Positions 31,188 through 63,929 of a stretch of 64,000 nucleotides of DNA are shown piece after piece. A program made the position numbers and the translations under genes. The notes under the pieces are model-generated. The model had not been told where the DNA came from. It did not search any database and worked only from the letters and a program-made list of their open reading frames with translations. The stretch's first letter is position 1. Every line of letters starts with the position of its first letter. Source of the stretch: an uncultured Gammaproteobacteria bacterium (GTDB taxonomy: Bacteria > Pseudomonadota > Gammaproteobacteria > UBA4575); NCBI GenBank assembly GCA_963976865.1, contig CAXBLY010000002.1, positions 22,917 to 86,916 on the forward strand, written 5' to 3'.

Positions 31188-31207
31188 GATTATTCCTTTT
31201 ATCAGTA

Positions 31208-32368: not shown

Positions 32369-32379
32369 AAAAGCTCTCC

Positions 32380-34669: not shown

Positions 34670-34969
34670 GTTCGAAAATATTCATTGCAACTACAATGCC
34701 AACTACGTTTTTACAAGCGAATTAAATTATTTGTTATGAGAATGATATTGAATCATGTTAATTACGCACTAATTTCTTTCATCATTAAATCGTTAAAACT
34801 TTATAATGGTGCGTAAGTAATATAAATTTTTATATATCAATAAACAGACCAGAATTAACACTCTGTAATTTCAGAAAGCTATGCATTTTTAGATGCATAG
34901 AATCTTTTATTAGTGCAGAATTATTATGGTACGGATGCTGACAAGATTTGATGCCTAAACGCATCTATA

Positions 34970-35233: not shown

Positions 35234-35245
35234 TAGTCTTGCTCC

Positions 35246-35560: not shown

Positions 35561-35588
35561 TATCTACACTCCTGAATTTAATTTAACA

Positions 35589-46935: not shown

Positions 46936-47493
46936 TTGATTGTAAATTTCATGTCAGACGACAAAAATAATCCCGATGACTCTCCAAGTTTTGCCGAGCT
47001 ACTCGATGGCGTAAAAGTATTATCCGATCATGACAAAGTCGTCCATGAAATACCCAAACCCCGCCCCATACCAAAGCAGTCACATCGAGATGAACGAAGA
47101 GTCATGGATGAGTTGCTCGTCAGCCCCAGTGAATATGTCGACATGCAAGCTGGTGATAGTCTTTCATATGTACAGACAGGAATACAAAAACAGGTCTTCC
47201 GCAAACTTAAACGTGGTCAGTACACAATTGAGGCAGAGCTGGATCTACACGGCTTGACCAGACTTGAAGCACAGCAGCAACTCAATGAATTCGTCAATGA
47301 ATGCAGAGAATTTGGGATTCGTTGTGTGCGTATCATTCATGGAAAAGGTTACGGCTCAAGTAATCAGGGCCCGGTGATTAAACCGTTAGTTAACCAGTGG
47401 CTGCAGCGGCGCTCAGAGATTTTGGCATTCTGTTCTGCAAGGCCTGCAGATGGTGGAACTGGCGCTGTGTACGTGTTGATAAAATCTACCTAG
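46936..47493 (+). CDS. Smr-domain protein (SmrB-like)
   Basis: About 183 aa from MSDDKNNP. The C-terminal Smr domain is ELDLHGLTRLEAQQQLNEFV...IRCVRIIHGKGYGS. Confidence 0.7.
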   Translation: MIVNFMSDDKNNPDDSPSFAELLDGVKVLSDHDKVVHEIPKPRPIPKQSHRDERRVMDELLVSPSEYVDMQAGDSLSYVQTGIQKQVFRKLKRGQYTIEAELDLHGLTRLEAQQQLNEFVNECREFGIRCVRIIHGKGYGSSNQGPVIKPLVNQWLQRRSEILAFCSARPADGGTGAVYVLIKST

Positions 47494-47494: not shown

Positions 47495-48196
47495 TCAGTA
47501 CTCACGTTGCAGTAAAAAGTTTTTGTAATAACGAACATCGTCGCGTATAAGCTCCAGATCTATAGATTGTGTATATTTAATCTGATCAAACGCATCTGAA
47601 AACTGGTCCGCATTCGTTGCTGCCACACCATTTACCGATACAATCAAATCTCCCTTCTGCAAATCAAGTTTTTTGGAGACATTTTCTTCAAGCACACTTT
47701 TAACCTCAAACGCTGCCAGCTGCCCATCTTGCATATGAGGAACCAAATTAAACGTGGTGATGAAATTTTCGGGCTTATCAAAAAATTGTTTGCGGTCTTC
47801 GGTGGATATATTTACAGGAGGTGACCATACATCTTTGCCTGCTGTTGATGTTATATCAATGCTTAAGCTTCTTAATGTCAAGGTAAGCACCTGGTCATTA
47901 CAGTAGAAACTAACGCGGCTACGACGAACATAATCCAGCACACAGCCAGCAACTACGTCACCGACTCGCAATACTAATTCACGATGCTTTTCTTTATCAA
48001 ACAGAACGGCAATTGAGTCAGGGTTATTCAGGACAACCCCGCTTAATTCAAAATTGGCTAATTTAAGTGGCGTACTCCAGACTGCCGGGACCGAAACGGC
48101 AAATGACAGGATCGCAACAGATATCCAGCGCAATCTAGACTGGATAAAAATCGATCGGATAATTAAATGTAAATACTGGAACATCTTCAGATCCAA
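47495..48196 (-). CDS. Membrane-anchored PDZ-domain protein (GspC-like architecture), last gene of the TonB array
   Basis: N-terminal TM helix WISVAILSFAVSVPAVW and a C-terminal PDZ-like block GDLIVSVNGVAATNADQFSDAFDQIK. The start is uncertain because the ORF overlaps the tonB 3' end. Confidence 0.4.
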   Translation of the reverse strand: MDLKMFQYLHLIIRSIFIQSRLRWISVAILSFAVSVPAVWSTPLKLANFELSGVVLNNPDSIAVLFDKEKHRELVLRVGDVVAGCVLDYVRRSRVSFYCNDQVLTLTLRSLSIDITSTAGKDVWSPPVNISTEDRKQFFDKPENFITTFNLVPHMQDGQLAAFEVKSVLEENVSKKLDLQKGDLIVSVNGVAATNADQFSDAFDQIKYTQSIDLELIRDDVRYYKNFLLQREY

Positions 48197-49121
48197 AATT
48201 GATCAGTTTTACGCGTTGAATTAGTTTCTGCTCGAGTTCCGTATCAGCCAGTTCACTACTGACGATATATACTTCAGTCACCTTCCCTGAAGGCGCAATA
48301 GAAATTTTTAGGACGACTTTTCCCTGCAGGTCAGGTGATGATCTAAGTGCCCGATTGTACATACTGAATATCGCACTCTTATTTCTATCAAATGTGATCT
48401 GTATTTTTTCCAGATCACGCTGCGCCGCACGTCCAACACCATTGTCACTGCCTGTGCCTGAACCGCCCTCACCAGCCCCCAGACCAGCAGGTCCAGAAAC
48501 ACGGCTCGCTGTTCTGCCGCCCAGTCCGGTACCCGATACGTCCCGGCTCAATGCAGCAGTATTGATACCACCACTGCCTTTACCTGTGTTCTTTGTTACC
48601 AGAGAACGTTCAATTCTTGAAGCCGAGCCACCACTATTACTGAGTGACCGCTCACCTAAAGTTTGCGAATTTGTTTTTTTACTGATGTCAGCCAATTCAC
48701 TTTGAAATGCCAGCAAACCCGAGGCCGCTGCCACTTCTTTTGCAGATTTTTTAGGTGGCGCAGGTGCTACCTTTTTCTGAGGGACAGGCTTATTAGCTGC
48801 TTTAGCAACTTTCTTTTCCTGTACTTTCTTTATTGCTTTTGGTTTTGTAGTTTTGACTGGTTTGTTAATTTTCTGAGGCACCACTTTTTTAACAATCGGT
48901 GGAGGTGGTGGAAGCTTTTTTTCAATCAGTATTTTTACAACGCGCTTTTCCTGTAATTCCTCAACTGGTTTTTCTTTTTCTGGCAAGGGCAGGAATGGGA
49001 CAATCAGGGTGAGCACAAGACAAGTCATCGTGACACGATTCAATACGCGTCTGAATCTTGTTTTCTCTACGGTTGACACTTCCCATGGGAGGCGCCATGA
49101 ATATACGGCTGCTGCTGTCAT
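48135..49121 (-). CDS. tonB: TonB-family energy transducer; start probably at the internal Met (MTAAAVYSW...)
   Basis: N-terminal TM anchor, a long Pro/Lys-rich spacer (KKLPPPPPIVKKVVPQK...KPVPQKKVAPAPPKK) and a C-terminal TonB domain (VVLKISIAPSGKVTEVYIVSS...FNYPIDF). Confidence 0.75.
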   Translation of the reverse strand: MTAAAVYSWRLPWEVSTVEKTRFRRVLNRVTMTCLVLTLIVPFLPLPEKEKPVEELQEKRVVKILIEKKLPPPPPIVKKVVPQKINKPVKTTKPKAIKKVQEKKVAKAANKPVPQKKVAPAPPKKSAKEVAAASGLLAFQSELADISKKTNSQTLGERSLSNSGGSASRIERSLVTKNTGKGSGGINTAALSRDVSGTGLGGRTASRVSGPAGLGAGEGGSGTGSDNGVGRAAQRDLEKIQITFDRNKSAIFSMYNRALRSSPDLQGKVVLKISIAPSGKVTEVYIVSSELADTELEQKLIQRVKLINFGSEDVPVFTFNYPIDFYPV

Positions 49122-49125
49122 AACT

Positions 49126-49629
49126 CTAACTTGCTTTAGTAGATTCTCTTTGAATAACGGATAATGATATCTGCTCAAAACCAGCACTTGAACAAATCTG
49201 CATGACTTGCTTTATCAGGCTGAATGGCACTTCTTTATCACCCATTATAGTAATTTCCTTTTTCTCACCTTCTTGCACATCTGCCTGAACTTTTAGCATC
49301 TCTTCCTGAAGTGCCATCTGTAGCTTTTGCACATCCGCTTTCTTATTTCCATTGATATCACCTGAACTGACAACTTTCTGACCCTGCAGGCTTATATCTT
49401 CATTATTAAGCATTAATACTACAGAAACACGCGGCTTTTTCTCAGCCATAGACTGCGGCATTTCAATGCCTTTAGCATTTGGTAGTACAGTCGGGTCCGA
49501 CGCATTCACCAGTAAGAAAAATACCAAAATGGTAAATATATCCATCAGCGAGACAATATTAAATGGTGCCTGCTTTTTAGCGCGATCATGATTGCGCTGC
49601 ATTCTTTGTACTGTTTTTTTGCCACGCAT
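49126..49629 (-). CDS. exbD: ExbD/TolR-family biopolymer transport protein (copy 2)
   Basis: 167 aa, single TM (FNIVSLMDIFTILVFFLL), ExbD fold. Confidence 0.8.
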   Translation of the reverse strand: MRGKKTVQRMQRNHDRAKKQAPFNIVSLMDIFTILVFFLLVNASDPTVLPNAKGIEMPQSMAEKKPRVSVVLMLNNEDISLQGQKVVSSGDINGNKKADVQKLQMALQEEMLKVQADVQEGEKKEITIMGDKEVPFSLIKQVMQICSSAGFEQISLSVIQRESTKAS

Positions 49630-49631
49630 AA

Positions 49632-50138
49632 TTATCTTCCTGCTGTATACACTGGAGCATCACCCACAGCGATATCAGGAAACAGATCTGCAAATACTGT
49701 TTCCCCATCCTTAACTACTTCTGCCGCCCTGACTGAGTCCATAATCTGAACAAGCACATCGTAGGTAATGTCTGGTTCTAACAGTATTGTTGCATTTTGA
49801 ATATCCTGATACCTGGTTTTCAGGCCTTGTAAATATTCGTTAAGTGCTGTTAATTCGTAGCCTTGGTCGCCGTTTTTAATTGATTTGAGTACGCCCTTGT
49901 TACGATCCTGAACACGCAATGAATTCTCGCGTACAACAATTTCAAGCTCTAATGTTTTAACGTTATTTTTGACAACATCAGATTTGGCTGGCAAATCCAG
50001 TTCCAAAATACTTATTTTAGAAAACACCGCTGTAATCAGCAGGAAAGGAACCAGAATTACCATCAGGTTCATGAAAGCAGTAATACTTAGCTCTGCTTCT
50101 TCCCTGTTGCGTCTTCTACTATGGCGTCTATATATCAT
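49632..50138 (-). CDS. exbD: ExbD/TolR-family biopolymer transport protein (copy 1)
   Basis: 168 aa, single TM (ITAFMNLMVILVPFLLI). Confidence 0.8.
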   Translation of the reverse strand: MIYRRHSRRRNREEAELSITAFMNLMVILVPFLLITAVFSKISILELDLPAKSDVVKNNVKTLELEIVVRENSLRVQDRNKGVLKSIKNGDQGYELTALNEYLQGLKTRYQDIQNATILLEPDITYDVLVQIMDSVRAAEVVKDGETVFADLFPDIAVGDAPVYTAGR

Positions 50139-50155
50139 AATGACTTATATCAATT

Positions 50156-50812
50156 TTATGCTTCAGCCTGTGCCTGCTTTCGCGCACTGACTGCAATGGT
50201 ATTCAGTACTTTGACTGAGGCCATCTCAAGGCTATCAACAATTTCTGTAGTCTTGGTCTGTAACCAGGAATGCAGAAGCAATAATGGAATACCTACCATC
50301 AGTCCAAATGCGGTTGTATTCATCGCAACCGAGATACTTGATGAGAGCAAATCTGCTTTTTCTGCAGGGCTTGCCGCGGATATTGCTGTAAATGCATCGA
50401 TTAGACCGATAATTGTTCCAAGCAGACCTAACAGGGTTGCAACATTTGCAAAAGTCGCCAGGTAATGAGTCCGCTTTTCCAGTTTAGGAACCACTTCCAT
50501 TAAACCTTCTTCCATTGCCGTTTCAATATCATCTCTACGGCGTGACGTTTGCGCACTTGCAATGCCATAGCCCATAATTCGGCTGATAGCACATTTGGAT
50601 TTTTCAGCAAAATTCATTGCTTCATTCATATTGCCACTGGCCAGTACTGTCTGAATTTTTTTCCAGGCAATCTGATTTTTAATTCGTGTGGAAGAAAGAT
50701 AAATATATCTTTCAATGGCGATCGCCAAACCTATGGCTAACACAAACACGATTGGGATCATGAAAATACCGCCGGACTGGAAGAATGTTACAAAAGACTC
50801 ATACATATTCAT
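50156..50812 (-). CDS. exbB: MotA/TolQ/ExbB proton-channel protein
   Basis: 218 aa, three TM helices, conserved C-terminal GLMVGIPLLLLHSWLQ. Confidence 0.85.
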   Translation of the reverse strand: MNMYESFVTFFQSGGIFMIPIVFVLAIGLAIAIERYIYLSSTRIKNQIAWKKIQTVLASGNMNEAMNFAEKSKCAISRIMGYGIASAQTSRRRDDIETAMEEGLMEVVPKLEKRTHYLATFANVATLLGLLGTIIGLIDAFTAISAASPAEKADLLSSSISVAMNTTAFGLMVGIPLLLLHSWLQTKTTEIVDSLEMASVKVLNTIAVSARKQAQAEA

Positions 50813-50842
50813 TGGGACTCCCTATTACTTAATATCGTAAAT

Positions 50843-51103
50843 TTATTTTCTACTTTGCTGATAGAAATCTACTTTGCGTTGAAAAACTTCCTTATCTACC
50901 GGCTGTATATATTCGTTAATATGTCGCTGCAGAAAAAAGTCGCCCTCACCTGGCAGTGATGCTTTCCATGGAACAATCACCAGACTTTTGGGTAATTCTT
51001 TATTACCAATAATTGAAATACCATTAAGCTCCTGCACATTCTGATCTGCAAATGACATACTTTGCATGAATATAAAGATCATAATTAGCAAGAAGATTTT
51101 CAC
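50843..51103 (-). CDS. Small secreted hypothetical protein (86 aa)
   Basis: Signal peptide MKIFLLIMIFIFMQSMSFA. Sits between the TPR lipoprotein gene and exbB. Confidence 0.4.
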   Translation of the reverse strand: MKIFLLIMIFIFMQSMSFADQNVQELNGISIIGNKELPKSLVIVPWKASLPGEGDFFLQRHINEYIQPVDKEVFQRKVDFYQQSRK

Positions 51104-51119
51104 TATCCCAACTCCATCA

Positions 51120-51752
51120 CTATTTTATTTGACTCTCTCTACGTGATAAATCACTTATCCAGGCTATGACTTGTTTATCGTCATTTTTTTCTATTTCTTG
51201 ATATGCCTGATAATGTGATTTTGCACAAACTATTTTCTGTAAATACAGGTCACATAAAATAGCTAAATTTAGATGAGCGTTTGCGTAATTCGGATACTCG
51301 GCCAGAGCATTTTTATACATACTCTGCGCCTCCTCAAAAGCGCCTTTTTCACGTTTAATAATGCCTGCCTGATTTAATGCATAAGGATTCTTTGGATTCA
51401 GCTTAACGGCAGTTTCAATAGCATGATCGGCTTTATCAATTTCGCCCAGTTTTCGGTAAGCTATCGCGATATTCACCCAGGGGCCTGAAGCACGCGGTTC
51501 TTTTTCTGCAACCTGATTGAATATTTCGATGGCCTGCAAATAATCTTCTGCAGACATTGCTTCCACACCATATCCAAACTGCTGTTCAACAGACGCAGAA
51601 ACTTTATAATTCTGCTTTACAACTATTCTGGAACTTTCATCTTTATTGTTGGCAACTGAAGATACATTACTGGGCGCATTTGCACATGCCGTTAACAGCA
51701 ATACAATGAAACCTGAAATAATATATTTAGTATTAATGAATTGTCTCCACAT
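51120..51752 (-). CDS. TPR-repeat lipoprotein
   Basis: 210 aa, lipobox LLTAC, TPR units (AIAYRKLGEIDKADHAIETAVKLNPKNPYALNQAG...). Confidence 0.6.
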   Translation of the reverse strand: MWRQFINTKYIISGFIVLLLTACANAPSNVSSVANNKDESSRIVVKQNYKVSASVEQQFGYGVEAMSAEDYLQAIEIFNQVAEKEPRASGPWVNIAIAYRKLGEIDKADHAIETAVKLNPKNPYALNQAGIIKREKGAFEEAQSMYKNALAEYPNYANAHLNLAILCDLYLQKIVCAKSHYQAYQEIEKNDDKQVIAWISDLSRRESQIK

Positions 51753-54549
51753 AAGCTTCTGATTTTTCTGTTCTCGCGTATCGCGCTGGTACTAATTCAC
51801 CTAATTCACGCAGGCTTTCTTTAATCCATTTGTTATACACACCATCCACTGTTCTGCGTGCATTCAGTTCAAACAGGTCAATCGCCTGCTCCTCAAACGG
51901 GAATGCCTGTTCTTCCAGTAAAAACTCATACTGCGCCAGTTCTTCTTGAGAAAGTCCGGGAGGCCGATCAGACTGCATTAATGCGCGACTAAAGTCGTAG
52001 TAAATCAAGCCTGAGTAGTAGGTTGCTGACGTAGTCACCTCTTCTACCTTGTATGCACCTGCCTGTTCAAACGCTAGCAATGCTCTTTCCATGAGCGTTT
52101 TCTTCGCTTTCAGACTTGTTTTCAATGGGATTTTCAAGCGGCTGGCATTAAATACCGTGTATTTAGGAATTGCCAACTGAAGTGATGCATTAGCAGCAAT
52201 AAATTTCATCCTGGCAGTACTGGTAGAACCTGCTACAGCCTCAGTCTTGATGATATCTTCCCGCCATTGCTTGACTAACTGGGTCTCATTTCTTGCTAGA
52301 TACAAATCTACAAGTGATTGACGAACTTCCAATGCAGCTTCATAAGGCTTGGGAAATCTCTTGATATAATTCTTGTAGATTTCAATAGCACGATAATCAT
52401 CTTTTTCTTTTGCATATAAATCTGCTGCCACAAGACTTGAAGTACGCTGGGTTTCTTTATCATTTGCATCATCCAGACTAATCCTTTCGTATTCTTGCGC
52501 AGCCAGTATATTGCGTTGATCTTTTTCGTATACCAGTGCTAATTTATGCGTAATTGAGGACTGTTCTTCATGATCAGGGAAACGGCTTCTGAAATCTTCC
52601 AGCACAACCGCGGCACGTGACCATTGCTCTGACTTAAGCAGTAATGTTGCTGCATCATATTGTGCTGCCGGTCGAATATCAGAACCAGGAACAATTCGGC
52701 CAACTCGCAAATAATGCTCTACCGCTATATCTGTTTCACCTGCCAACTGACTGGCTTCTCCCTGTTTGTAAATAGAAGCGGCTAGTTTTTCTTCAAGATT
52801 TTTACGCTCTTTAGCATCATTTCCAACTAATAGAATTGCCTGTTGGTAAGCAACCTCTGAACCAGGAAAGTCATTTAGCTCGAAAGAAGAGTGCGCCTTA
52901 ACAGTCCAGGCACTTTTACGAAGTTTGATATCGCTATCAGCAAACTTTTCAACCAGCAAACTTGATGCCTGAATAGCCCTGCTGTAATCTTTAATTGAGA
53001 ATAGATCTTCAGCTGCTTTTGTTAACGCCACAGATGCTTGTGGATGTAACGGGAATTTATTGGCAAATTTAAATGTACTATCAATCTGCCTGGATTTAAT
53101 TTGTGCATTAACACTTTTGTCTTTAGTTGCAGTCAACCAGTCATTAAACGCAACCAGAGCTGCATAACCAGCCTCTGAATCTTTTGCATGCGCCGGATAG
53201 TGATATGCTGTCTTTTCAAATTCAACAACTGCATTTTCATATTCTTTAGTTTCAAACCAGATATCTGCCAGCAGGAAATTCATATGCGCCGAATGCGGAT
53301 CTTCGGGAAACGATGCTATGTAGGCCTGATACCAGCGGGTTGCTTCAATATAGTCTGGCTTCTTCTTGGATTTCTGGGCAACGGCATGATAGTACTTGGC
53401 TAAATCGATGATATTGGATTTCAGATAATCAACGACATGTGACGCATCTTCAATCTGGTTATGTACCCAGTATTCAGAGTTAATATGATAATTTTCAACA
53501 AACTGTTTTTTTGCATTCAGTACTTCAGACGGGAATTTACCTTTCTTGAACGCATCAATGGCCCTGATCTGGAAATCTGGCGCCTGCGCATTGAACTGAT
53601 TATGCTTAACAAACTCTCTAAATGTATTGGCAGCATCACTATAGCGCTGCTTTTCCAGATACTGCACCCCCAGCCGATCATAGATCAAGGCTTCGTATGG
53701 TCGCCTTCCGTGACCATTAAAATAACCCGATATTTCACTGGCACCGCCCAAATAACCATAACTTAATCCCAATGCGCGCAGAGAGTCGTCTAACAACTCT
53801 TTTTCTGGACGCGTCAGCGCTTCTATATCCTTATCAACATCATTCATAATCATGGTATCGAGAAGCGCAATAAACGAATGCAATCCGACATCATAATCAA
53901 GCCTCTTGAATTGCGTCCAACCCTGTTTATAAAGTGCATGCCGATAGAATCGACTGTCCTTGCCCAGCTCGATGACTTCAGCATAAGCCAGTTCAGCTCG
54001 CTTGTATTTCTTATCTACAAACAGTGTCTCGCCACGGCGAAACTGCGCTTCCACGTAATAATCAGAATCCGGAAACTTTTCAATTAATCTGTCTAGACTA
54101 TCCAGCATTTTCTCGCGCTGATCTGCCGCTTCATATGCCCGTGATAATTGATACAGGACAACATCGTTTAATTGATAGTCTGATTGCTCTAGCAACAAGT
54201 ATTCATATAACTCGATAGTCTCTTTATAATTTATATCAGTGGTTGTGAATTTTGATGCAACTTCAGGACTTGATACATCGACTGCCTGCAGGTCTTCATT
54301 TTCCTCTAGCCTTAAATCACCCAACCTGCGTATTACTTCTGGCGAATCTTTTTCCTGATCTTCATCAACCAGCAACTCACGATAGCTATGTATGGCTTTC
54401 TTACGGCTACTCTCAACGGGAATGTCGTTTTCCACGTCGACTTTCTTACGCTCAAGGTCTTCAATCGTATAATAGGACCCACCGCCCCAGCCACAAGCCT
54501 GTATCATTAGAATCAGCGCATAAACGCTGCAATAACGTATATGCTTCAT
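51733..54549 (-). CDS. Large TPR-repeat lipoprotein (938 aa)
   Basis: Lipobox MIQACG, then multiple TPR-like helical repeats throughout. Confidence 0.6.
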   Translation of the reverse strand: MKHIRYCSVYALILMIQACGWGGGSYYTIEDLERKKVDVENDIPVESSRKKAIHSYRELLVDEDQEKDSPEVIRRLGDLRLEENEDLQAVDVSSPEVASKFTTTDINYKETIELYEYLLLEQSDYQLNDVVLYQLSRAYEAADQREKMLDSLDRLIEKFPDSDYYVEAQFRRGETLFVDKKYKRAELAYAEVIELGKDSRFYRHALYKQGWTQFKRLDYDVGLHSFIALLDTMIMNDVDKDIEALTRPEKELLDDSLRALGLSYGYLGGASEISGYFNGHGRRPYEALIYDRLGVQYLEKQRYSDAANTFREFVKHNQFNAQAPDFQIRAIDAFKKGKFPSEVLNAKKQFVENYHINSEYWVHNQIEDASHVVDYLKSNIIDLAKYYHAVAQKSKKKPDYIEATRWYQAYIASFPEDPHSAHMNFLLADIWFETKEYENAVVEFEKTAYHYPAHAKDSEAGYAALVAFNDWLTATKDKSVNAQIKSRQIDSTFKFANKFPLHPQASVALTKAAEDLFSIKDYSRAIQASSLLVEKFADSDIKLRKSAWTVKAHSSFELNDFPGSEVAYQQAILLVGNDAKERKNLEEKLAASIYKQGEASQLAGETDIAVEHYLRVGRIVPGSDIRPAAQYDAATLLLKSEQWSRAAVVLEDFRSRFPDHEEQSSITHKLALVYEKDQRNILAAQEYERISLDDANDKETQRTSSLVAADLYAKEKDDYRAIEIYKNYIKRFPKPYEAALEVRQSLVDLYLARNETQLVKQWREDIIKTEAVAGSTSTARMKFIAANASLQLAIPKYTVFNASRLKIPLKTSLKAKKTLMERALLAFEQAGAYKVEEVTTSATYYSGLIYYDFSRALMQSDRPPGLSQEELAQYEFLLEEQAFPFEEQAIDLFELNARRTVDGVYNKWIKESLRELGELVPARYARTEKSEAYVETIH

Positions 54550-56438: not shown

Positions 56439-56465
56439 TTAAAGGTAAGCTCTCTGCCAGATCAC

Positions 56466-57038
56466 CTATTGCCACTCTTTAATGACAAATTCAGGTTGTT
56501 TCTTGATAGACCTGTCTGAAATCTTGAGCTCCAGATATTTTGCACCCAGGCCTTTTTCTACTTTTATATCTGCACCCCGGCGATAATCACGTCCGTTCGG
56601 TCCCTTGCCAACAAGTATCGCCACTAATTCATGTTCACCACTGGTGACGTTACCAACATACAGTTGCTGAACACCGCCACGGTGTAATGCATCAACTTCA
56701 CGTTTGGTATACAAATAGTTTGCAACAATCTTGTCATCCAGTTTTAACTGCACAGAGTCAAGATCAAAGAAATCACCAACATCCACTGACACGAATACAG
56801 CTATTTGTGTATTTGCAGGGAAAAGCAATTCTTCCTCTAAAATATACAGATCGCGATTAATCTCAAGAACCTCTTTCTTAAGCGACTGGACTCGCCCATC
56901 CAGTGATTTAAACTCATCATCAAGATTTTCGCCTGTTTGAGTTGCAGAGATTACACTTCCTGTAATCAGCATTGAAATTATTAATACCAGTAATTTTGTA
57001 GGCATACCCACCTCCTTTAAATTATTCTTTCTCATCAA
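56466..57038 (-). CDS. Secreted hypothetical protein (190 aa)
   Basis: Signal peptide, short coiled-coil, then a beta-rich domain. No motif recognised. Confidence 0.4.
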   Translation of the reverse strand: MMRKNNLKEVGMPTKLLVLIISMLITGSVISATQTGENLDDEFKSLDGRVQSLKKEVLEINRDLYILEEELLFPANTQIAVFVSVDVGDFFDLDSVQLKLDDKIVANYLYTKREVDALHRGGVQQLYVGNVTSGEHELVAILVGKGPNGRDYRRGADIKVEKGLGAKYLELKISDRSIKKQPEFVIKEWQ

Positions 57039-57039
57039 C

Positions 57040-58176
57040 TCAATATCTCACCGAAAAGAACAGTTGCAATACTGCCGCATCAAATGAATATGGATCATCG
57101 GTAATGACAGAAAGGTCTTCTATCCCGCTGTAGTCGTCATATTGCGAATCAATATATTCTGCAGAAAAATTCAACGTGCCATTATTGAATCTTGAATATT
57201 CATCAAAAATCCTATAGCTGACTTTGGCGCCAATTGAGTAACTATCAAAAGTGCTTAATTCTTTATCTCTGGCCATGAAATTTCGCGCGACCGAAAAATT
57301 ATTACTATAAAAGTCTGCTGCATCCTGAGTGTAATAACGTAAATACAAATCGGTCAGCCAACGATCACCAATATATTGCGAATAAGTGAAATCGACTGTA
57401 TGAGCAACTATGTCCCAGGTGTCTCTAAAATATCGATAACCCAGAGAAGTTGCAGCTTTGAAATCCCAGTACTTGGTCACGCTGAGTGCCGTTGCCTGGC
57501 TAGACCTTGTACCCGGATACACTTCGGAACCCAAACCCTGCGGAACATTCCCAATAATGACAAACCGGTAGGGATTATTGAGGTAACCATCTTCAAGCGT
57601 TGCCTCATAAGAGAGATCTGCTCTGATTTTACTGGTTAATACCTGTGATAAAGAAACACGATATTGAGATCGTTTTAAATCTTCCTCAAATTCAGGCGCA
57701 TCAACACGCTTGATAGTATCCCAACCATGAGTAAAGCCCAGGCCTATGGTAGTTAAATCACCAAACATGTCATGAGAAATATCAAAACCTGCTGTATTGG
57801 CCTCATAATCATTCTCATCACTATAAGTATAGAATGCGCCGATTACTGTATTATCATGCAGGTAGTTACCACCCAGCGTAAATTCATCTCTGTCTTCAGT
57901 ATATTTGCTTGCGCCTGCCAGCACGTCGGGCGACGCGCCAGTAATATTGTCCTGATGATATTTTCCGTACACTGAAAATTTTTGTGCAAAGCTTTTGCGT
58001 ACCAGTACAGTGACACCATCAACCTCTACACCACCACCATCGTAATAATGGTATTGAACATCTGCCCTGTCTTCAGGTAACTGGGCAGCAAATGCTGGTT
58101 GCCTGATCAGTGATACAGCAGCAATGGCGCTTATAATTAGCGCGTATATAGCAAATTGTAATTTAGTTACAGCCAC
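57040..58176 (-). CDS. DUF3570-like outer-membrane beta-barrel protein; probable GTG start at 58176
   Basis: The tracked ATG ORF (57040..58326) would overlap the DUF4266 gene by 164 nt. A GTG at 58176 preceded by AAGGAA gives MAVTKLQFAIYALIISAIAAVSLIRQPAFAA, a clean signal peptide. The body has alternating beta-strand patterns with C-terminal ...LQLFFSVRY. DUF3570 assignment from memory only. Confidence 0.5.
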   Translation of the reverse strand: MAVTKLQFAIYALIISAIAAVSLIRQPAFAAQLPEDRADVQYHYYDGGGVEVDGVTVLVRKSFAQKFSVYGKYHQDNITGASPDVLAGASKYTEDRDEFTLGGNYLHDNTVIGAFYTYSDENDYEANTAGFDISHDMFGDLTTIGLGFTHGWDTIKRVDAPEFEEDLKRSQYRVSLSQVLTSKIRADLSYEATLEDGYLNNPYRFVIIGNVPQGLGSEVYPGTRSSQATALSVTKYWDFKAATSLGYRYFRDTWDIVAHTVDFTYSQYIGDRWLTDLYLRYYTQDAADFYSNNFSVARNFMARDKELSTFDSYSIGAKVSYRIFDEYSRFNNGTLNFSAEYIDSQYDDYSGIEDLSVITDDPYSFDAAVLQLFFSVRY

Positions 58177-58393
58177 AACCACTTCCTTGTGCCGATGCTG
58201 CGCCTTTAGCACCTTCTCTGGTTTCATAGGTGTGTTGTCTGAACGAGCTAAACACTGCATCACGATCCGGATCCATAATAGGGTCTGCCAAATGCTCTCG
58301 TTCATATGGTGCCACCCACGGTTCAATCGGCTTTATACTGCATGCAGTTAAGCCAATAACAATGAACATTAACAATAAAGATTTAATTATCAT
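58163..58393 (-). CDS. DUF4266-like small lipoprotein
   Basis: 76 aa, lipobox GLTAC, C-terminal GSGCGCN. DUF4266/DUF3570 pairing recalled from memory. Confidence 0.5.
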   Translation of the reverse strand: MIIKSLLLMFIVIGLTACSIKPIEPWVAPYEREHLADPIMDPDRDAVFSSFRQHTYETREGAKGAASAQGSGCGCN

Positions 58394-58396
58394 GAT

Positions 58397-58912
58397 TTAT
58401 TCATATTTCAATTGCTTGATCTGCTGCTGATAAAGACTCAGGTAACTTTCTTTATAACCACGGTGCATATATCGAATCTCGCCGTTTCTATCGACAATAA
58501 TAGTCATGGGCATAGCGTCAATATCGTATAGTTTGCTTACCTGTTTGGACTGGTCGAATAATATTGGGAAATCAATCCCCAGTTTTTTTGCCAGTCTTAT
58601 GGCTTTTTCCGGTTCTTCATCAATGTTGACTGCGAGCAGTTCAAAATCATATTCGTCATGCAGTCCCTTTAGCTCAGAAAGTTTTGGCAATTCCTGCTGA
58701 CAAGGACCACACCATGATGCCCAGAAATTAATAAGCACAACTTTGCCACGATATTCACTAAGTTTTCGGTTATCACCCTGATCACTCTTTAAAGTAAAAT
58801 CAGGTGCTGTCTTGCCGATCAGTTCATTTCTGGCAACTGAAGTACCCACGCAAATCAGACACAGGAGTCCTGTAATAACAATTAAAATATTTTTAATTTC
58901 TATACTTTTCAT
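58397..58912 (-). CDS. TlpA/ResA/CcmG-like periplasmic thiol:disulfide oxidoreductase
   Basis: 171 aa, signal anchor, active site WASWCGPC, AhpC/TSA-TlpA fold. Confidence 0.8.
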   Translation of the reverse strand: MKSIEIKNILIVITGLLCLICVGTSVARNELIGKTAPDFTLKSDQGDNRKLSEYRGKVVLINFWASWCGPCQQELPKLSELKGLHDEYDFELLAVNIDEEPEKAIRLAKKLGIDFPILFDQSKQVSKLYDIDAMPMTIIVDRNGEIRYMHRGYKESYLSLYQQQIKQLKYE

Positions 58913-58932
58913 GACGCCTCCACATACATAAT

Positions 58933-59571
58933 TTAGAAGAACACGCCCAGGTTGAATGAGGCTTCCAGGTTATGTGTGAATTCATTTTCTCCCAACAGAT
59001 CTGTTTCATAGATATAATCTCTAAAATCAAATCGTGCTGATAACCAGTCCGTTGGCAGAATTTTCAACCCTATTCCAAAGTGGTATGCAAACTCGTCCTC
59101 TTCAATGAACTCAACATTACCAACACCTGCGAGTACATAAAAAGTACTACTCAACGCGATGTCACGCCCCAGAAACACTTCGCCCGGCAATATGTTGTAC
59201 CCTATTGATAATGCGTAATATTCAACGTCCTGCGTTTCCTGGGGGAACAATGGCAGACCTAGCCGACGAAATGACTCATCTTTAACCTCAGATTCGCCGT
59301 ATGTCGCTTCAACAAAGAAGTCTTCGGTGACGTGATACGCTGCACGAATTCCAATCACCGGTTCAGACCCAAAATCCTCGACATCCAGTACTCCATAGAA
59401 TGCTGAGATCTCGAAGTCTTCAGTATCAATTTTCGGCACCACGATATCTCTACGATGAATATCTGGCTTAATCACCTGTTCCTGTTCTTGCTGATCTTCA
59501 TCTTCCTGCGCAAACACCATGCCGGTGTTGATGCCTATCAGCATGATGAGAAATATTGCAATCCATTTCAT
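58933..59571 (-). CDS. Outer-membrane beta-barrel protein (OmpW/OmpA-barrel-like)
   Basis: 212 aa, signal peptide, acidic linker, amphipathic beta strands, C-terminal ...NLGVFF. Confidence 0.5.
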   Translation of the reverse strand: MKWIAIFLIMLIGINTGMVFAQEDEDQQEQEQVIKPDIHRRDIVVPKIDTEDFEISAFYGVLDVEDFGSEPVIGIRAAYHVTEDFFVEATYGESEVKDESFRRLGLPLFPQETQDVEYYALSIGYNILPGEVFLGRDIALSSTFYVLAGVGNVEFIEEDEFAYHFGIGLKILPTDWLSARFDFRDYIYETDLLGENEFTHNLEASFNLGVFF

Positions 59572-59590
59572 AATTTATCCCTTCCCTTCT

Positions 59591-60376
59591 TTAAAAGAAA
59601 AATGCCACGCCGCCTGTTATTTCATCAAAATCATCGTTTTCATCATCGTTTGATAAAACAACGTAGCGACGATAATCAGCACGTATAAAAAAACGTTCAG
59701 TCAAATAAAATCTTGCACCGATCCCTGCATTGGCAAGATCAGAATCTGTCTCTTCGGCATTTACCAGTGTTGCTCTTGGAGTATTCTCAAAACGACCATA
59801 ACCAATTGTAAAATTTGGACTGACACGCCATTTCGGAAATGGTGTTGAGACAAGATTGAGGCTGTAAACATCAGAGCTGGAAAAGTCACCAGCAACTTCA
59901 CCATAGGAGAATTCCAGCATGATATTTTCTGTAAATTTGTAACCCAGACGTGCGGTAATAAACGGATCACCTGAGAAATCACCTCCAGACACACCAAACT
60001 CGATTCGTCTTCTCAAGTAGTCACTGACTAATACATCACGAAAACTCTTGTTCGAGCCTGCCTCAGTCAACGTACGCTCCATTTGTGAACGTTCAACCCA
60101 ACCGGTTTTATTGTGATCTGTTCTGACTTTAAACCAGTCTGTTTTACGCTTGATTATTTCAACCCATTCGTGACGATCCACCACATGGAAAATGGGAAAT
60201 CCACGTCCTGGACCTGTATGCATTTCAATATATGGATCAGCAACCTGTACGCTTTGATACTCTTTATCTGCGTAGGCGACCTGATTGACTGTGATGAACA
60301 TCACAAAGGCAAATATCACATACTTTAAGTGAGTTATTGTTGAGATTTGAGTAAAGCTTTCCATGCCTGATTTCAT
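59591..60376 (-). CDS. SH3b-like domain fused to an outer-membrane beta-barrel domain
   Basis: 261 aa, signal peptide. DPYIEMHTGPGRGFPIFHVVDRHEWVEIIKRKTDWFKVRTDHNKTGWVE is bacterial-SH3-like. The C-terminal barrel ends ...GGVAFFF. Confidence 0.5.
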   Translation of the reverse strand: MKSGMESFTQISTITHLKYVIFAFVMFITVNQVAYADKEYQSVQVADPYIEMHTGPGRGFPIFHVVDRHEWVEIIKRKTDWFKVRTDHNKTGWVERSQMERTLTEAGSNKSFRDVLVSDYLRRRIEFGVSGGDFSGDPFITARLGYKFTENIMLEFSYGEVAGDFSSSDVYSLNLVSTPFPKWRVSPNFTIGYGRFENTPRATLVNAEETDSDLANAGIGARFYLTERFFIRADYRRYVVLSNDDENDDFDEITGGVAFFF

Positions 60377-60386
60377 TTCAAATTAT

Positions 60387-60911
60387 TTATGGGGCGCAGC
60401 TTGCCAGATCAGCAGCTGATGGACCTGTTCCTGTTAGGACAGTACAATTTACCGGACACGAACCATTGTTTGTTCCTGCCCAATTAGCAATTTCTTGATA
60501 ACAAGTCGCCGCTGTACTTGCAAAAATATCGCCACCACCATGTGGCCCTACGGATGCGACTCCGGAATCACCAACTAAGGGTTCGGCAAGTAATTTGCTC
60601 TGCGAGACACTGGCAGGATTCACAAAGGCTTGTGCAGAATTAAAATTAAATGCCAGGTCAGCAGCAGTTACCGGGTTTTGAATCAGGATAAATGCACCAC
60701 CTGATCCACCAGAAGCATGACAGGCGCTCGCTGCGCAGCTGACATTTGATGCACCTATTGGCCCTTGCAAGATAGGACTAATACACAAATCAAAAATGTT
60801 GCTACATAAATCTGCAACACTACCGGGATCATCCTCGGTAGAAACACTGTCGCATCCAGTTAAAATGATTAGCGCCGCAGCAAGCGACGCAAACCGCCGC
60901 TTCTTGTTCAC
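60387..60911 (-). CDS. Gly/Ala/Ser-rich Cys-containing lipoprotein (174 aa)
   Basis: Lipobox ILTGC and 10 Cys, including SCAASACH, a C-x4-CH arrangement of the kind used by some c3-type cytochromes. Confidence 0.45.
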   Translation of the reverse strand: MNKKRRFASLAAALIILTGCDSVSTEDDPGSVADLCSNIFDLCISPILQGPIGASNVSCAASACHASGGSGGAFILIQNPVTAADLAFNFNSAQAFVNPASVSQSKLLAEPLVGDSGVASVGPHGGGDIFASTAATCYQEIANWAGTNNGSCPVNCTVLTGTGPSAADLASCAP

Positions 60912-60938
60912 GGTAACTTCTCCGTAACTATTTAATAT

Positions 60939-63929
60939 TTAAATACAAGTTGGGTTATTTGCAGCACCCATGCTAATCCAGTTCAATATCACGCCATAAG
61001 TGCTATTCGGACTAGTGTCTACTAATACCGGTTGAGTGGGCCCCGCTGGATTAGCAGGACTCACTAACACCTGTGGGTGAGGCAAGTTAGGAGCAACATT
61101 GTCAGAAACTGCTCTTAGCAACAAATCATTGTTAGCCGGTGTACATAGATCGTTAATCATGGAAATAGTGACATTGAAGTCGCCGCCAGGATTACCTGTT
61201 AATACAAACCGGTTTTGTCCACTTGATGGATTCGCACTGTTGTCAGCATCTTCACCAGGCGCATGACATGACTGACAATCGGCCATTAATCGTGGATGAA
61301 CTGTCGAATTAAACAGTGACTGACTTACACCTACGTTTGAAAGCAGGTCTGCTTTAACTTTATAGACGCCATCAACCAGCTCAAATGGATCATTAATATA
61401 TTGAGCACCGATATCCACCCATTCAGTCACCAGACGCTTTTCAGATGCGTTCATAAACAGACTATGGTCTAACGTGCCAAGCACATGTTCATTATCAGCG
61501 CGTAATTTTCTATGATAAATCGTCTCAATGAGATGACTGGTACGTGAACTATTGGCAGAACCACCCACAGACACTAGCGGTTCATTACGCAGGAATACAA
61601 CTCCTCCATCCTGTACTACAGGTGGTAATGGCTGACCAAAAGCATCTTTCTCAAATGTTCCAATTAGCAGTTGATCATATGAAATGATTCTGCCACCCAA
61701 ACCACTCAGACCACCTTCTAAAGTTAATCCCGCTGAAACAGCCTCGTTCGCCAGCAATGCATTGTTATGGCAATTTACACATGTACATCCACCATCATTA
61801 ATTGCACCTGCTGCACTACAGGCACCCAGCACATCATCACGTGCCTTGTCCCAGATCGGCTGGATATGATCTTCGTAGTTGATTCTTATACGTCCATTAG
61901 GTGCGACCGGTGGAGGCGTATCCAGATCATCATATGAAATGATTTGCTGCTGTATACCACCGATGCTGACCCCTGCCCACACAGGTGTATAAGTTATATT
62001 GGGTAATAGGTCACCCGACCCATTCGCTGGATCATTACGACTCTTAGTATCAGCCATTGTTTCACCCGCTACGACATCCCAACCTTTAGTAGCAATATAT
62101 TCATTATCAGCTTGGCTACCTGCGATTGGCGTTGTATTTAATGGTTCTGTTGCACGCCTTGGTGAATGGCATCCATTACATGTACGTACTTCACCGGGAC
62201 GCACCTGCAACCAGTTTGTATGCGTTTGAAATGCACGCCCTTCTCCATCCAGTACAGTCATGGCGACTGCCGTGTCCGCTGGTACTTTTACACGGAATGA
62301 TCCGTCAGGCTCGATCTGCTGGTATCCAAGAATTTCCTGCATCTCAAATTCACTTTCACCAATCGCATCCATGATCATGCCCGGTGGCGTTGGAATTGCT
62401 CGGGTCACACGGACAAAACGCGCAACACGATTTGCAAACTCTGGAGTACTGGGATCTTTCATTAACAGCAGATCCGGCTCTCCTGTTGCAGTTTTAGGAA
62501 TGGTTTCACCAGGTGCCAATACCGAGTCGCCCATAATATCCAGTGAATCAGTGTCGTAAACACTGCGAACATTCAGCACACCCATACCTGTACCACCTAA
62601 ACCATTCGCTTCAGAAGCCAATGCGGGATCAGGGAATTTATCCCCGATAATCGCAGGTGTATCACCCAGACCACGTGGAAGTATTGCAATTGGATCAACC
62701 AGCGCTTTACCCGGTGCTGCCAGATGCACAGGACGCAATGTTCTATTCCCCAGGTCCATCATATATATACTGTATTCCGGAGTTCCCTGATCAGGTTCGG
62801 TAACTCCCGTCATAGGGTCCGTTACCATGGCCGGATTTGGTGGCGCAGGCCTGAATGAGACTAATGCACGGTTTGTCCCATCCCACAAAGGATAAGGTGT
62901 TGTGAAACGTCCGCCGGGAGAAAACTCATCATCAAAGTTAACTGTGAGATTTGTTAATTGAACTTTAGTTTGCCCATTGCAGTTCTGCGGAAGTCCTGGT
63001 CCTGGTTCACACGCATCAGAATAATTTTTAACATCCAGCAGCATTATCGCACCCGCTTCATTAGTACCTGATAAAGGCATCAATGAGGTCATCACACGAC
63101 CATCCTGCATTTCTCGAGGATGTAAAAAACTGTTCCCTGGACTAAATGCTCCGTACTCTACAAACAGGTTTGTTCCGTCAGGGTTTGCAAAAAATACCGG
63201 GAAATGATTTCTGTTTGCGAAATGATCCCAGCGTGAATACATAATTTCACCCGTCTTAAGCACAGTGGCATTACGATCATGACTCTGGTTAAACGATATT
63301 TGCGTGATTTCCTGAGTCACAGGATCAAACACATGCAGAGCAATCGTCTGCTCACGCTCATACTCATCCAGATATGTATATGGCTCTACATTTTCTTCAG
63401 CCATTTTTTGTTGCGTTGTTTTTTGGCGGCTGGATGAAAATACGATTCGTCCATCCGGCAAATAGGCGGGGTCTACATCATCCGCTAATTCAGCAACGGC
63501 TGTATCCTGAATTAACCGCGTCAGCGTGTTTGAATTCAGATTAATTTCCCAGATATTAAACGTTGCATCATTCGGTCCACGCATGGCAAACACCACTTTG
63601 CTTGCATCAAAGTTGACTTCAGGATCAGACACGTCACCCTGACCCTGGGTATAGGCGGAAGTTAAGTTGGTAGATTCCGAAAGTGGAGCAGATACATTTT
63701 TCATGTATAAATCACCACCCGGTGAAAAACGTACACCATCAGTAGGGTTACCAAGGGCAGCGGTATTTCTTTGCGCATACACAATTGGGAAGTCACCATT
63801 AATGATCACACCCTCTTCGCCTGCGCCCCCGCCACAGCCTGACATTGAAGTAGCAATAGCCCCACCGATTGCCCATATACTTATGCGTAAACATTTAGCC
63901 CATTTAACTGCCATGACCGACTTCTCCAA
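60939..63929 (-). CDS. Giant lipoprotein (996 aa) with TolB-like (PD40) beta-propeller repeats and three CxxCH motifs, putative c-type haem lipoprotein
   Basis: Lipobox SMSGC. Repeated propeller-blade signatures are present (RFSPGGDLY, YLPDGRIVFSSSRQ, ANPDGTNLFVEYG, FSPGGRFTTPYP, IEPDGSFRVKVP). Three spaced haem-attachment-type motifs are CNGCH, CVNCH and CQSCH. Confidence 0.55.
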   Translation of the reverse strand: MEKSVMAVKWAKCLRISIWAIGGAIATSMSGCGGGAGEEGVIINGDFPIVYAQRNTAALGNPTDGVRFSPGGDLYMKNVSAPLSESTNLTSAYTQGQGDVSDPEVNFDASKVVFAMRGPNDATFNIWEINLNSNTLTRLIQDTAVAELADDVDPAYLPDGRIVFSSSRQKTTQQKMAEENVEPYTYLDEYEREQTIALHVFDPVTQEITQISFNQSHDRNATVLKTGEIMYSRWDHFANRNHFPVFFANPDGTNLFVEYGAFSPGNSFLHPREMQDGRVMTSLMPLSGTNEAGAIMLLDVKNYSDACEPGPGLPQNCNGQTKVQLTNLTVNFDDEFSPGGRFTTPYPLWDGTNRALVSFRPAPPNPAMVTDPMTGVTEPDQGTPEYSIYMMDLGNRTLRPVHLAAPGKALVDPIAILPRGLGDTPAIIGDKFPDPALASEANGLGGTGMGVLNVRSVYDTDSLDIMGDSVLAPGETIPKTATGEPDLLLMKDPSTPEFANRVARFVRVTRAIPTPPGMIMDAIGESEFEMQEILGYQQIEPDGSFRVKVPADTAVAMTVLDGEGRAFQTHTNWLQVRPGEVRTCNGCHSPRRATEPLNTTPIAGSQADNEYIATKGWDVVAGETMADTKSRNDPANGSGDLLPNITYTPVWAGVSIGGIQQQIISYDDLDTPPPVAPNGRIRINYEDHIQPIWDKARDDVLGACSAAGAINDGGCTCVNCHNNALLANEAVSAGLTLEGGLSGLGGRIISYDQLLIGTFEKDAFGQPLPPVVQDGGVVFLRNEPLVSVGGSANSSRTSHLIETIYHRKLRADNEHVLGTLDHSLFMNASEKRLVTEWVDIGAQYINDPFELVDGVYKVKADLLSNVGVSQSLFNSTVHPRLMADCQSCHAPGEDADNSANPSSGQNRFVLTGNPGGDFNVTISMINDLCTPANNDLLLRAVSDNVAPNLPHPQVLVSPANPAGPTQPVLVDTSPNSTYGVILNWISMGAANNPTCI

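Follow-up and report, generated by a model that had tools for sequence, protein, structure and literature searches.

What kind of system is encoded where a Ton-like energising unit lies in one gene array with candidate haem, flavin and thiol proteins of the cell envelope? The question is raised by positions 47495-63929 of the window (the whole 64,000-nucleotide stretch analysed here, part of contig CAXBLY010000002.1 from an uncultured gammaproteobacterium), where the listing of open reading frames (ORFs) gives 17 ORFs in succession, all on the minus strand. The results revealed three modules, the identification of which is close to certain. Synteny with a published Thioalkalivibrio cluster identifies the Ton-like half as the Agl-Glt core complex; the redox genes are an ApbE/DUF3570/DUF4266/thioredoxin module, with flavinylation predicted here; and the largest protein, of 996 amino acids (aa), belongs to a widespread, uncharacterised family related to HzsA, the alpha subunit of hydrazine synthase. 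What is new, as judged from gene content and order, is the conserved union of these parts: the core, with a small protein termed p190 as an unrecognised invariant member, is tied to the flavin transferase ApbE, a thioredoxin fold and an HzsA-like lipoprotein, and the pairing of core and redox genes recurs in more than 100 other loci. We therefore read the array, with moderate confidence, as one trans-envelope system of the Tol/Ton type that draws its energy from the proton-motive force (PMF) and works with outer-membrane and periplasmic redox proteins.

Does the array form one unit? With the public starts or the longest ORFs, adjoining genes are separated by gaps of 1-36 nt or overlap by 4-20 nt, the public gene calls being those of contig L164, which shares 22268 nt with the window at 100% identity. 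Larger overlaps in the raw ORF list (DUF3570/DUF4266, GltG/ExbD and PDZ/GltG) stem from upstream alternative start codons. At its downstream end, the array is bounded by a convergent Smr gene (46936-47493, plus strand), beyond which lie surE-pcm-nlpD and genes for amino-acid biosynthesis. At the other end, the window edge cuts the unit, and in L164 an ApbE gene (PF02424) lies upstream of the HzsA-like gene, its end 194 nt away. The array and this ApbE gene outside the window are one operon-like unit of 18 genes. A scan for promoter and terminator consensus sequences over 46.5-64 kb gave counts at shuffle background and no help with the boundaries, so the operon inference rests on spacing and conserved synteny; the shared strand by itself is unremarkable, as the window is mostly minus-strand. 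The initial annotation had described 17 tightly packed minus-strand envelope genes, probably in one or two operons, and the ORFs, their spacing and the synteny confirmed an envelope system of co-transcribed appearance.

The Ton-like half comprises the following genes, given in the direction of transcription.
56466..57038, minus strand: p190, secreted or anchored, with a coiled coil and a beta-sandwich and no family (probable start 57005, giving 179 aa)
54546..56438, minus strand: GltC-like TPR protein, 630 aa, secreted, with weak TPR matches (positional orthologue Tgr7_0543; MXAN_2541, gltC)
51733..54549, minus strand: GltD-like large TPR lipoprotein, 938 aa (TPR_6 at 3e-20, YbgF/BamD-like repeats; positional orthologue Tgr7_0542; MXAN_4870, gltD)
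51120..51752, minus strand: GltE-like TPR lipoprotein, 210 aa (TPR_19 at 9e-15; positional orthologue Tgr7_0541; MXAN_4869, gltE)
50843..51103, minus strand: p86, a small secreted protein of no family, encoded between GltE and the motor genes and found in almost every related locus
50156..50812, minus strand: AglR-like proton channel of the MotA/TolQ/ExbB type, 218 aa (PF01618 at 1.6e-28; positional orthologue Tgr7_0539; MXAN_6862, aglR)
49632..50138, minus strand: ExbD/TolR-type subunit 1, AglQ/AglS-like, 168 aa (PF02472 at 9e-14), with a transmembrane Asn (FMNLMVIL)
49126..49629, minus strand: ExbD/TolR-type subunit 2, AglQ/AglS-like, 167 aa (PF02472 at 1e-15), with a transmembrane Asp (LMDIFTIL)
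48135..49187, minus strand: GltG-like TonB-type transducer (NCBIfam AgmX/PglI C-terminal domain at 7e-17, 61.3 bits against a cutoff of 40), with a start probably near 49121
47495..48196, minus strand: PDZ/GspC-like membrane-anchored protein, 233 aa as the longest ORF (PDZ matches under cutoffs; GspC at 3e-16, under cutoff)

All seven positions of the Agl-Glt core are filled in this half, in the order GltC-GltD-GltE-p86-AglR-ExbD-ExbD-GltG. The core complex was defined by Luciano et al. 2011 (PLoS Genet, PMC3169522) as aglR, aglQ, aglS, gltC, gltD, gltE and gltG, and was found clustered in several Gammaproteobacteria, one Betaproteobacterium, Geobacter and Fibrobacter, with one extra gene in the clusters that is absent from Myxococcales. 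In Table S3 of that study, the cluster of Thioalkalivibrio sp. HL-EbGR7 includes Tgr7_0536 (535 aa, GltG), Tgr7_0537 and Tgr7_0538 (170 and 168 aa, AglS/AglQ), Tgr7_0539 (222 aa, AglR), Tgr7_0541 (190 aa, GltE), Tgr7_0542 (922 aa, GltD) and Tgr7_0543 (620 aa, GltC). A homologue lookup with the 996-aa protein of the window returned a region of CP001339.1 (L001) that is this very Tgr7_0536-0543 locus. Its order runs ApbE, HzsA-like (944 aa), a 168-aa protein, SH3/barrel, barrel, thioredoxin, DUF4266 and DUF3570, and continues with a 175-aa protein, TPR proteins of 620, 922 and 190 aa, a 91-aa protein and a MotA_ExbB protein of 222 aa. Gene order and sizes match, so that the window agrees with the published core-complex locus in synteny, gene for gene. 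Since Tgr7_0540 was omitted from the table, p86 is probably the extra gene noted by Luciano et al. In addition, p86 occupies the position of gltF in Myxococcus (gltD-gltE-gltF-gltG), and the barrels lie upstream of gltC as gltB-gltA do there, two positional parallels to be taken as leads only. As a side observation, public names in Table S3 look wrong for Tgr7_0537 and TERTU_3743, an ExbD-type gene being called 'sigma-70 factor' and an ExbB-type gene 'ATPase', and the p190 homologue P0283 carries the doubtful public name 'AraC family transcriptional regulator'.

With core genes homologous to aglRQS and gltCDEG, the array might be taken for a gliding-motility or spore-coat machine like the Agl-Glt/Agl-Nfs systems of Myxococcus. 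This reading is scarcely credible, because the core genes alone are insufficient for motility and of unknown function outside myxobacteria (Luciano et al. 2011, PMC3169522), and because Pfam and NCBIfam searches of the 17 array proteins found no domains of GltF, GltH, GltI, GltJ, GltK, CglB, AglZ or MglA, and none assigned to GltA or GltB, a TIGR04565 barrel being present. The same study reported that AglR interacts with GltG and that the motor is a PMF motor of the Tol/Exb type.

The motor proteins of the array were also compared with better-known families. For the AglR-like protein, the TolQ and ExbB equivalogs all scored far under their cutoffs. In the window, ExbD paralogue 1 has Asn at the aligned transmembrane position, as in 23/70 loci, and paralogue 2 has Asp; this position is the protonatable Asp site of ExbD/TolR. 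The GltG-like protein combines a TonB-like C-terminal domain with a transmembrane anchor, a linker rich in Pro and Lys and a region rich in Gly and Ser. It matched the NCBIfam models GltG (1e-13) and GltJ, both under cutoff, and fell just under the TonB cutoffs (TIGR01352, TonB_Cterm, 26.2 against 27.1; Pfam TonB_C, 19.7 against 24.6). The GltE-like protein matched NCBIfam GltE at 7e-12, also under cutoff. Of the three TPR proteins previously described as lipoproteins, two have a conserved-looking lipobox, but the 630-aa one looks plainly secreted. Furthermore, the PDZ/GspC-like product of the last gene, left unnamed in the initial annotation, is lineage-specific, being present only in the window's clade and in L007-L009.

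Upstream of p190, the redox half and its outer-membrane partners are encoded by these genes.
60939..63929, minus strand: HzsA-related lipoprotein, 996 aa as the longest ORF (Pfam HZS_alpha at 4e-19; the public start 63914 gives 991 aa)
60387..60911, minus strand: 174-aa lipoprotein with C-x4-CH and eight conserved Cys, without a Pfam or NCBIfam family
59591..60376, minus strand: SH3 domain plus outer-membrane beta-barrel, 261 aa, C-terminus FFF (Pfam OMP_b-brl at 1e-11, SH3_3 at 1e-7)
58933..59571, minus strand: small outer-membrane barrel, 212 aa, TIGR04565 'OMP_myx_plus' (NCBIfam at 2.5e-42, 144.6 bits against a cutoff of 60)
58397..58912, minus strand: TlpA/ResA-type periplasmic thioredoxin fold, 171 aa, WCGPC (Pfam AhpC-TSA at 1e-30 and Redoxin at 2e-29, above 100 bits)
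58163..58393, minus strand: DUF4266 lipoprotein, 76 aa, ending in GCGCN (CXC) (Pfam DUF4266, PF14086, at 1.6e-20, 74.2 bits)
57040..58326, minus strand: DUF3570, a probable outer-membrane barrel and ApbE substrate (Pfam PF12094 at 2e-39, 135.9 bits)

These searches bore out the earlier domain calls for both halves (TonB-like, ExbB, two ExbD, three TPR, DUF3570, DUF4266, TlpA and two barrels). The SH3-barrel protein also matched TIGR04565 at 40 bits, under cutoff, and no mention of TIGR04565 was found in the literature. For the TlpA-like protein, the NCBIfam ResA/TlpA matches were all under cutoffs; a thioredoxin-like homologue stands at the same position in most related loci. The DUF4266 lipoprotein keeps its lipobox Cys and CXC in 11/11 orthologues. 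Public gene calling of the identical contig missed its ORF (L164 6157-6387) by giving DUF3570 a long start that overlaps it; the Pfam match at 1.6e-20 and the conservation in 11 loci show that the gene is real. The true DUF3570 start is probably near 58176-58224, as the orthologues have 371-395 aa, and the predicted protein is probably located in the outer membrane.

The DUF3570, DUF4266 and TlpA-like genes are consecutive, as in the clusters of genes for ApbE and DUF3570, for a thioredoxin-like protein and for DUF4266 described by Méheust et al. 2021 (eLife, PMC8238504), 227 with DsbD and 316 without. ApbE is likewise adjacent upstream in L001 and in L003, a 90%-identical metagenome-assembled genome (MAG). 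In the study of Méheust et al., a Chlorobium DUF3570 protein was flavinylated by ApbE at two [S/T]GA[S/T] motifs and the C-terminal CXC of DUF4266 was noted, the function of the clusters being left uncertain. The window's DUF3570 carries two sequon-like sites, DNITGAS (exact) and DVLAGAS (with Ala at the first position), and in its relatives both sites stand in register, with the Gly often replaced.

The presence of a motor and a TonB-like transducer invites a second reading, in which the array would be an unconventional TonB-type uptake system, for example for reductive assimilation of iron or other metals, with DUF3570 or the barrels as the energised gate and the haem and flavin proteins reducing the substrate. 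In the clusters of Méheust et al. 2021 (PMC8238504), 25 with DUF3570 include the VIT1 iron transporter, and flavinylation is linked to iron reduction. Nevertheless, this explanation is unlikely. The 17 proteins contain no plug or receptor domain (PF07715/PF00593, at E up to 0.01), as the initial annotation had maintained in setting the array apart from TonB-dependent uptake loci, and no periplasmic binding protein or inner-membrane importer. In addition, GltG, which does not reach the TonB cutoffs, is grouped with the domain of the GltG/PglI type, and most related loci have no barrel gene adjoining the core.

The 996-aa protein has a signal peptide, an N-terminal TolB-like beta-propeller, an HZS_alpha middle domain and CxxCH motifs at C584, C717 and C885. 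All three motifs are invariant in 120/120 homologues (47-91% identity), and the lipobox Cys32 is kept in 117/120. With conserved CxxCH in an exported protein, it is classed as a c-type cytochrome, its haem attachment being predicted. The AlphaFold2 (AF2) model (pLDDT, or predicted local distance difference test, 75; pTM, or predicted template-modelling score, 0.80) found its best PDB match by Foldseek in hydrazine synthase alpha, 5C2V_A (E 1e-30, about 925 columns, 17% identity, TM 0.62 on the target). The protein was rejected as a hydrazine synthase itself, as NCBIfam hydrazine_alpha (NF052339) gave 68.4 bits against a cutoff of 800, over the middle domain only, and no genes for the HzsB (beta) or HzsC (gamma) subunits were found in the array. 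According to a 2025 study, HzsA-like proteins outside anammox are numerous and have no known function. The 174-aa lipoprotein keeps C-x4-CH and the eight Cys in all recovered orthologues, so the haem motifs stressed in the initial annotation, in both proteins, are conserved features.

As a side observation, the lipobox Cys of the 174-aa protein is directly followed by Asp, as in most of its orthologues. In enterobacteria, Asp at this position is an inner-membrane retention signal, and an electron path could thus have its inner-membrane end in the 174-aa protein.

TolB propellers are the next structural matches to the 996-aa model after HzsA, which brings in a third reading, a Tol-Pal paralogue for envelope integrity or division with the HzsA-like protein as TolB analogue, GltD as CpoB analogue and redox genes that only mature the haem protein. 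In line with it, the GltD repeats reach 91.2 bits against the YbgF/CpoB model (cutoff 90.1, summed over repeats), and TolQ and TolR models are the best NCBIfam matches of the motor proteins. Against it, the equivalogs lie far under their cutoffs (TolQ 58.9 against 221, TolR 34 against 127, TolB 22.9 against 343), there is no Pal/OmpA-type peptidoglycan-binding lipoprotein, and invariant haem motifs and ApbE linkage are not Tol-Pal features, making a Tol-Pal origin decidedly improbable. Taken together, these comparisons ruled out assignment of the array or its proteins to hydrazine synthase, Tol-Pal, classical Ton uptake, cytochrome maturation (Ccm) and a complete gliding machine. The array is thus not a cytochrome-maturation operon, as had been stated before.

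Is the union of core and redox genes a chance adjacency? For a genome sample, one genome per species was scanned with a GltD alignment, relatives were found in at least 587 species, and the best 80 loci, from Steroidobacteraceae, Woeseiaceae, Acidiferrobacterales, Thiohalobacter, Peristeroidobacter and marine MAGs, were compared by tblastn with the window proteins. Throughout this sample, p190-GltC-GltD-GltE-p86-AglR-ExbD-ExbD-GltG forms an invariant block, in which p190 is the best conserved protein (55-70% identity where GltD has about 41%). Among the 72 genome loci with at least 1.2 kb before p190, a thioredoxin-like gene and/or ApbE lies directly before p190 and co-directional with it in 70, with the following arrangements.
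Thioredoxin-like gene only, directly adjacent and co-directional: 46 loci
ApbE and thioredoxin-like gene: 13 loci
Full cassette of the window type: 8 loci
ApbE only: 3 loci
Neither: 2 loci

An HzsA-like gene was found inside the 10-kb flank in 37/80 genome loci, in Steroidobacteraceae usually divergent and about 7 kb upstream. All 18 genes stand in the same order, with proteins 40-50% identical, in Thioalkalivibrio, an Acidiferrobacteraceae MAG and others.

A metagenome sample was based on p190, which comprises 1187 representatives at 50% clustering; contigs were found with a 5-sequence alignment of distant representatives (31-37% mutual identity) and annotated with hidden Markov models (HMMs) built from the genome sample. 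In 38/38 long metagenome loci with upstream sequence, ApbE and/or the cassette stands beside p190 and the core, arranged as follows.
Cassette of the window type: 13 loci
HzsA-like gene and ApbE divergent from the core: 9 loci
ApbE directly adjacent to p190 on its upstream side, in many cases along with a divergent HzsA-like gene: 16 loci

HzsA-like genes lie nearby in 25/39 metagenome loci, co-directional or divergent, and encode lipoproteins with two CxxCH; over both samples, the nearby HzsA-like lipoproteins have 2-3 CxxCH. In the latter two arrangements, the barrels and DUF3570 are replaced by three other genes while ApbE is kept. The redox link thus survives rearrangement, being kept across changed gene order, orientation and content. 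The synteny between Ton-like and redox genes that had been proposed is therefore conserved, as are the motifs, and the genes do not dissolve into unrelated systems lacking shared synteny. A search of a plasmid collection with p190 gave no match, and no literature was found that treats Agl-Glt together with ApbE, TlpA, DUF3570 or flavinylation.

Several side observations concern these loci. In the alternative cassette (L116 3331-8921; L092 3814-9607; L016 1069-6364), the three products are a monohaem protein like PSD2/DUF1585 (400-440 aa), a dihaem LamG lipoprotein (830-915 aa) and a protein that bears a twin-arginine signal (530-577 aa), and ApbE comes next. In L100, L119, L128 and L160, a glycosyltransferase gene takes the place of GltE and the motor genes (e.g., L100 15767-16849). 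In Peristeroidobacter agariperforans (L018 1675-5180, minus strand), two possible regulators, a Ser/Thr kinase with TPR and an extracytoplasmic function (ECF) sigma factor, are encoded just upstream of the thioredoxin-like gene and the core.

The distribution of the genes also bears on a fourth reading, that of adjoining but independent systems, in which the Glt core would have an unrelated task, such as moving polymers or lipoproteins or maintaining the envelope, along the lines suggested for Agl-Nfs, and a separate redox cassette would merely share the transcription unit. The DUF3570/DUF4266/thioredoxin/ApbE module is widespread without Glt genes, for example in Chlorobium and in DsbD-linked clusters (PMC8238504), and the cassette is replaced or absent in many loci with a Glt core. 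A 2013 paper from the group of Luciano et al. proposed that the core is "a basal transport machinery", its cargo being unknown. Conversely, ApbE, thioredoxin-like and HzsA-like genes stay linked to the core in different orders and orientations and at about 40% protein identity (70/72 and 38/38 loci), and a redox-dead thioredoxin is kept in place, which suggests a structural tie to the core. On balance, independence of the two halves is possible but doubtful, and one trans-envelope system with redox partners is preferred, comparative genomics pointing, a little better than evenly, to functional coupling of the motor with the redox proteins.

Other observations weigh against this preferred reading of a single coupled system. 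Some loci, namely L100, L119, L128 and L160, hold HzsA-like, barrels, TlpA, DUF4266, DUF3570, p190, GltC, GltD and p86 with no motor genes downstream, as independent systems would allow. The barrels and DUF3570 accompany the HzsA cassette and not the core, most related loci having no barrel beside the core. Canonical flavinylation sequons were absent from 10 kb on each side in 20 loci with ApbE but without DUF3570, and in the Glt-linked DUF3570 relatives the Gly of the sequon sites is often replaced. No DsbD/CcdA-type electron source was found among the scanned window genes (nor were Ccm genes). The thioredoxin-like protein has lost both active-site Cys, with WAGDS for WCGPC, in 17/70 of the genes at the conserved position, which speaks against a purely catalytic role; the loci, all from Steroidobacteraceae and with the gene at about 6.7-7.3 kb in each, are L017, L019, L024, L025, L030-L032, L034-L036, L039, L041, L048, L061, L064, L065 and L072. 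There is no conserved Cys pair in p190, GltC, GltD, GltE, p86 or GltG, which leaves the thioredoxin without an obvious target in the core, and reduction of a core protein by TlpA was ruled out on this ground. Both locus samples were chosen by similarity and are phylogenetically non-independent, and they leave out the Marinobacter-, Saccharophagus- and Geobacter-type and other distant core clusters of Luciano et al. 2011. Finally, the putative contact of Glt with the redox proteins draws its support from comparative genomics only. The claim of a dedicated periplasmic thioredoxin accordingly calls for qualification, and a Cys-less thioredoxin kept at the same position suggests a structural role.

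How might a single coupled system of this kind work? If Ton, Tol-Pal and the Glt model of Myxococcus are taken as guides, three modules would act together. The first consists of an ExbB/AglR stator with two different ExbD/AglQ-S subunits, the GltG transducer, a GltC-GltD-GltE scaffold, p190 and p86; the second, of ApbE-dependent DUF3570, DUF4266 with its CXC and the TlpA-type thioredoxin; and the third, of the HzsA-like tri-haem propeller lipoprotein, the C-x4-CH lipoprotein and the two small outer-membrane barrels. Proton flow through the stator would move GltG, which may act via GltD/GltE and GltC on outer-membrane partners, and instead of a plug-type receptor these would be the barrels, DUF3570/DUF4266 and/or the HzsA-like lipoprotein. 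The carriers of haem (the 996-aa and 174-aa proteins), flavin (DUF3570) and thiol (TlpA and DUF4266) could then carry out redox reactions at the outer membrane or in the periplasm. Gene content, the domains and families of the proteins, the conservation of cofactor motifs and the conserved neighbourhood were observed here. In this scheme, physical coupling, the direction of electron flow, the substrate and the localisation are points that we infer.

A more specific proposal can be offered tentatively. A structural model of the Myxococcus machinery (Commun Biol 2025, PMC11761067) has GltC docked beneath outer-membrane barrels and GltD as a central pillar that binds the TonB-like domain of GltG; GltF bridges them, and the cargo CglB is a lipoprotein with a beta-propeller. 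Since the Myxococcus Glt platform holds and exposes this propeller lipoprotein, the HzsA-like protein might be cargo in a comparable way. By this analogy, the core, from which the gliding and spore-coat motors of myxobacteria arose, might ancestrally be a proton-driven outer-membrane platform with a redox lipoprotein as cargo or partner, which would position, expose or gate the HzsA-like propeller (and flavinylated DUF3570 where present) and so couple PMF to extracytoplasmic electron transfer or a small-molecule redox reaction.

What the Glt core does outside myxobacteria has explicitly stood open as a question since 2011, and Luciano et al. 2011 (PMC3169522) expected that study of the core should explain the origin and working of the gliding motor. 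The present results turn a 15-year-old unknown function into testable partnerships: the core stands almost always beside a flavin transferase and a thioredoxin-fold protein, and a conserved haem propeller lipoprotein is usually near, which together are concrete partners. Thioalkalivibrio and Peristeroidobacter are cultured carriers of the core locus. The array also provides a context for two orphan families, namely the HzsA-related proteins, with thousands of members and no known function outside anammox, and DUF3570/DUF4266, for which flavinylation has been shown but no role is known. If the coupling is physical, outer-membrane redox proteins would be a new output class for 5:2 PMF motors (Mot, Ton, Tol, Agl and Zor).

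The rest of the window holds housekeeping genes. Unrelated to the array are a formamidase/acetamidase gene with a five-gene ABC (ATP-binding cassette) transporter of the amide/urea or branched-chain type and a beta-carbonic anhydrase (29714-36845 and 37145-37783, minus strand). In addition, a 543-aa ORF (23250-24881, plus strand) has no Pfam family at E up to 1e-6.

Compared with known systems, the array had been said to match none. This does not hold for its parts, which correspond to the core of Luciano et al. 2011, the module of Méheust et al. 2021 and the HzsA-related family, but it does hold for their combination; as both published modules are functionally uncharacterised, the term "undescribed machine" is true of the combination only. 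With HzsA (5C2V chain A), the 996-aa protein shares the propeller, the middle domain and the haem-c domains, whereas it has three CxxCH to the two of HzsA, is a lipoprotein and is only 17% identical.

With Ton and Tol-Pal, the array has in common a MotA/TolQ/ExbB channel, ExbD/TolR subunits, a Pro-rich anchored transducer with a TonB-like C-terminal domain, CpoB/BamD-like TPR partners and a TolB-like propeller. It differs in its two unlike ExbD subunits, one of them with Asn, in the lack of a TonB-dependent receptor and of Pal, and in the fusion of the propeller to haem domains. The Agl-Glt machinery of Myxococcus shares the likely force path, from AglRQS through GltG, GltD/GltE and GltC to the outer-membrane barrels, and both the HzsA-like protein and CglB combine a lipoprotein anchor with a propeller. 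Unlike CglB, with its VWA adhesin domain, the candidate cargo here has haems, and the window's GltG is without the cytoplasmic FHA domain of Myxococcus GltG.

All four components of the module of Méheust et al. 2021 are common to that module and the array, and the CXC and two sequon-like sites are found in the window. The window differs in having no DsbD nearby, in a thioredoxin that matches AhpC-TSA/Redoxin where the reported family is PF13899, in AGAS at the second sequon where [ST]GA[ST] was published, and in the placement of the module between an HzsA-like cytochrome with barrels and the Glt core. Lastly, the seven genes of the Luciano core and the extra small gene lie in one operon-like region, with the same order and sizes as Tgr7_0536-0543. 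Beyond that published set, p190 is an invariant extra member, a PDZ gene has been added at the end in the window's lineage, and the window and the Thioalkalivibrio locus both extend upstream through p190, DUF3570, DUF4266, TlpA, the barrels, the C-x4-CH lipoprotein and the HzsA-like gene to ApbE.

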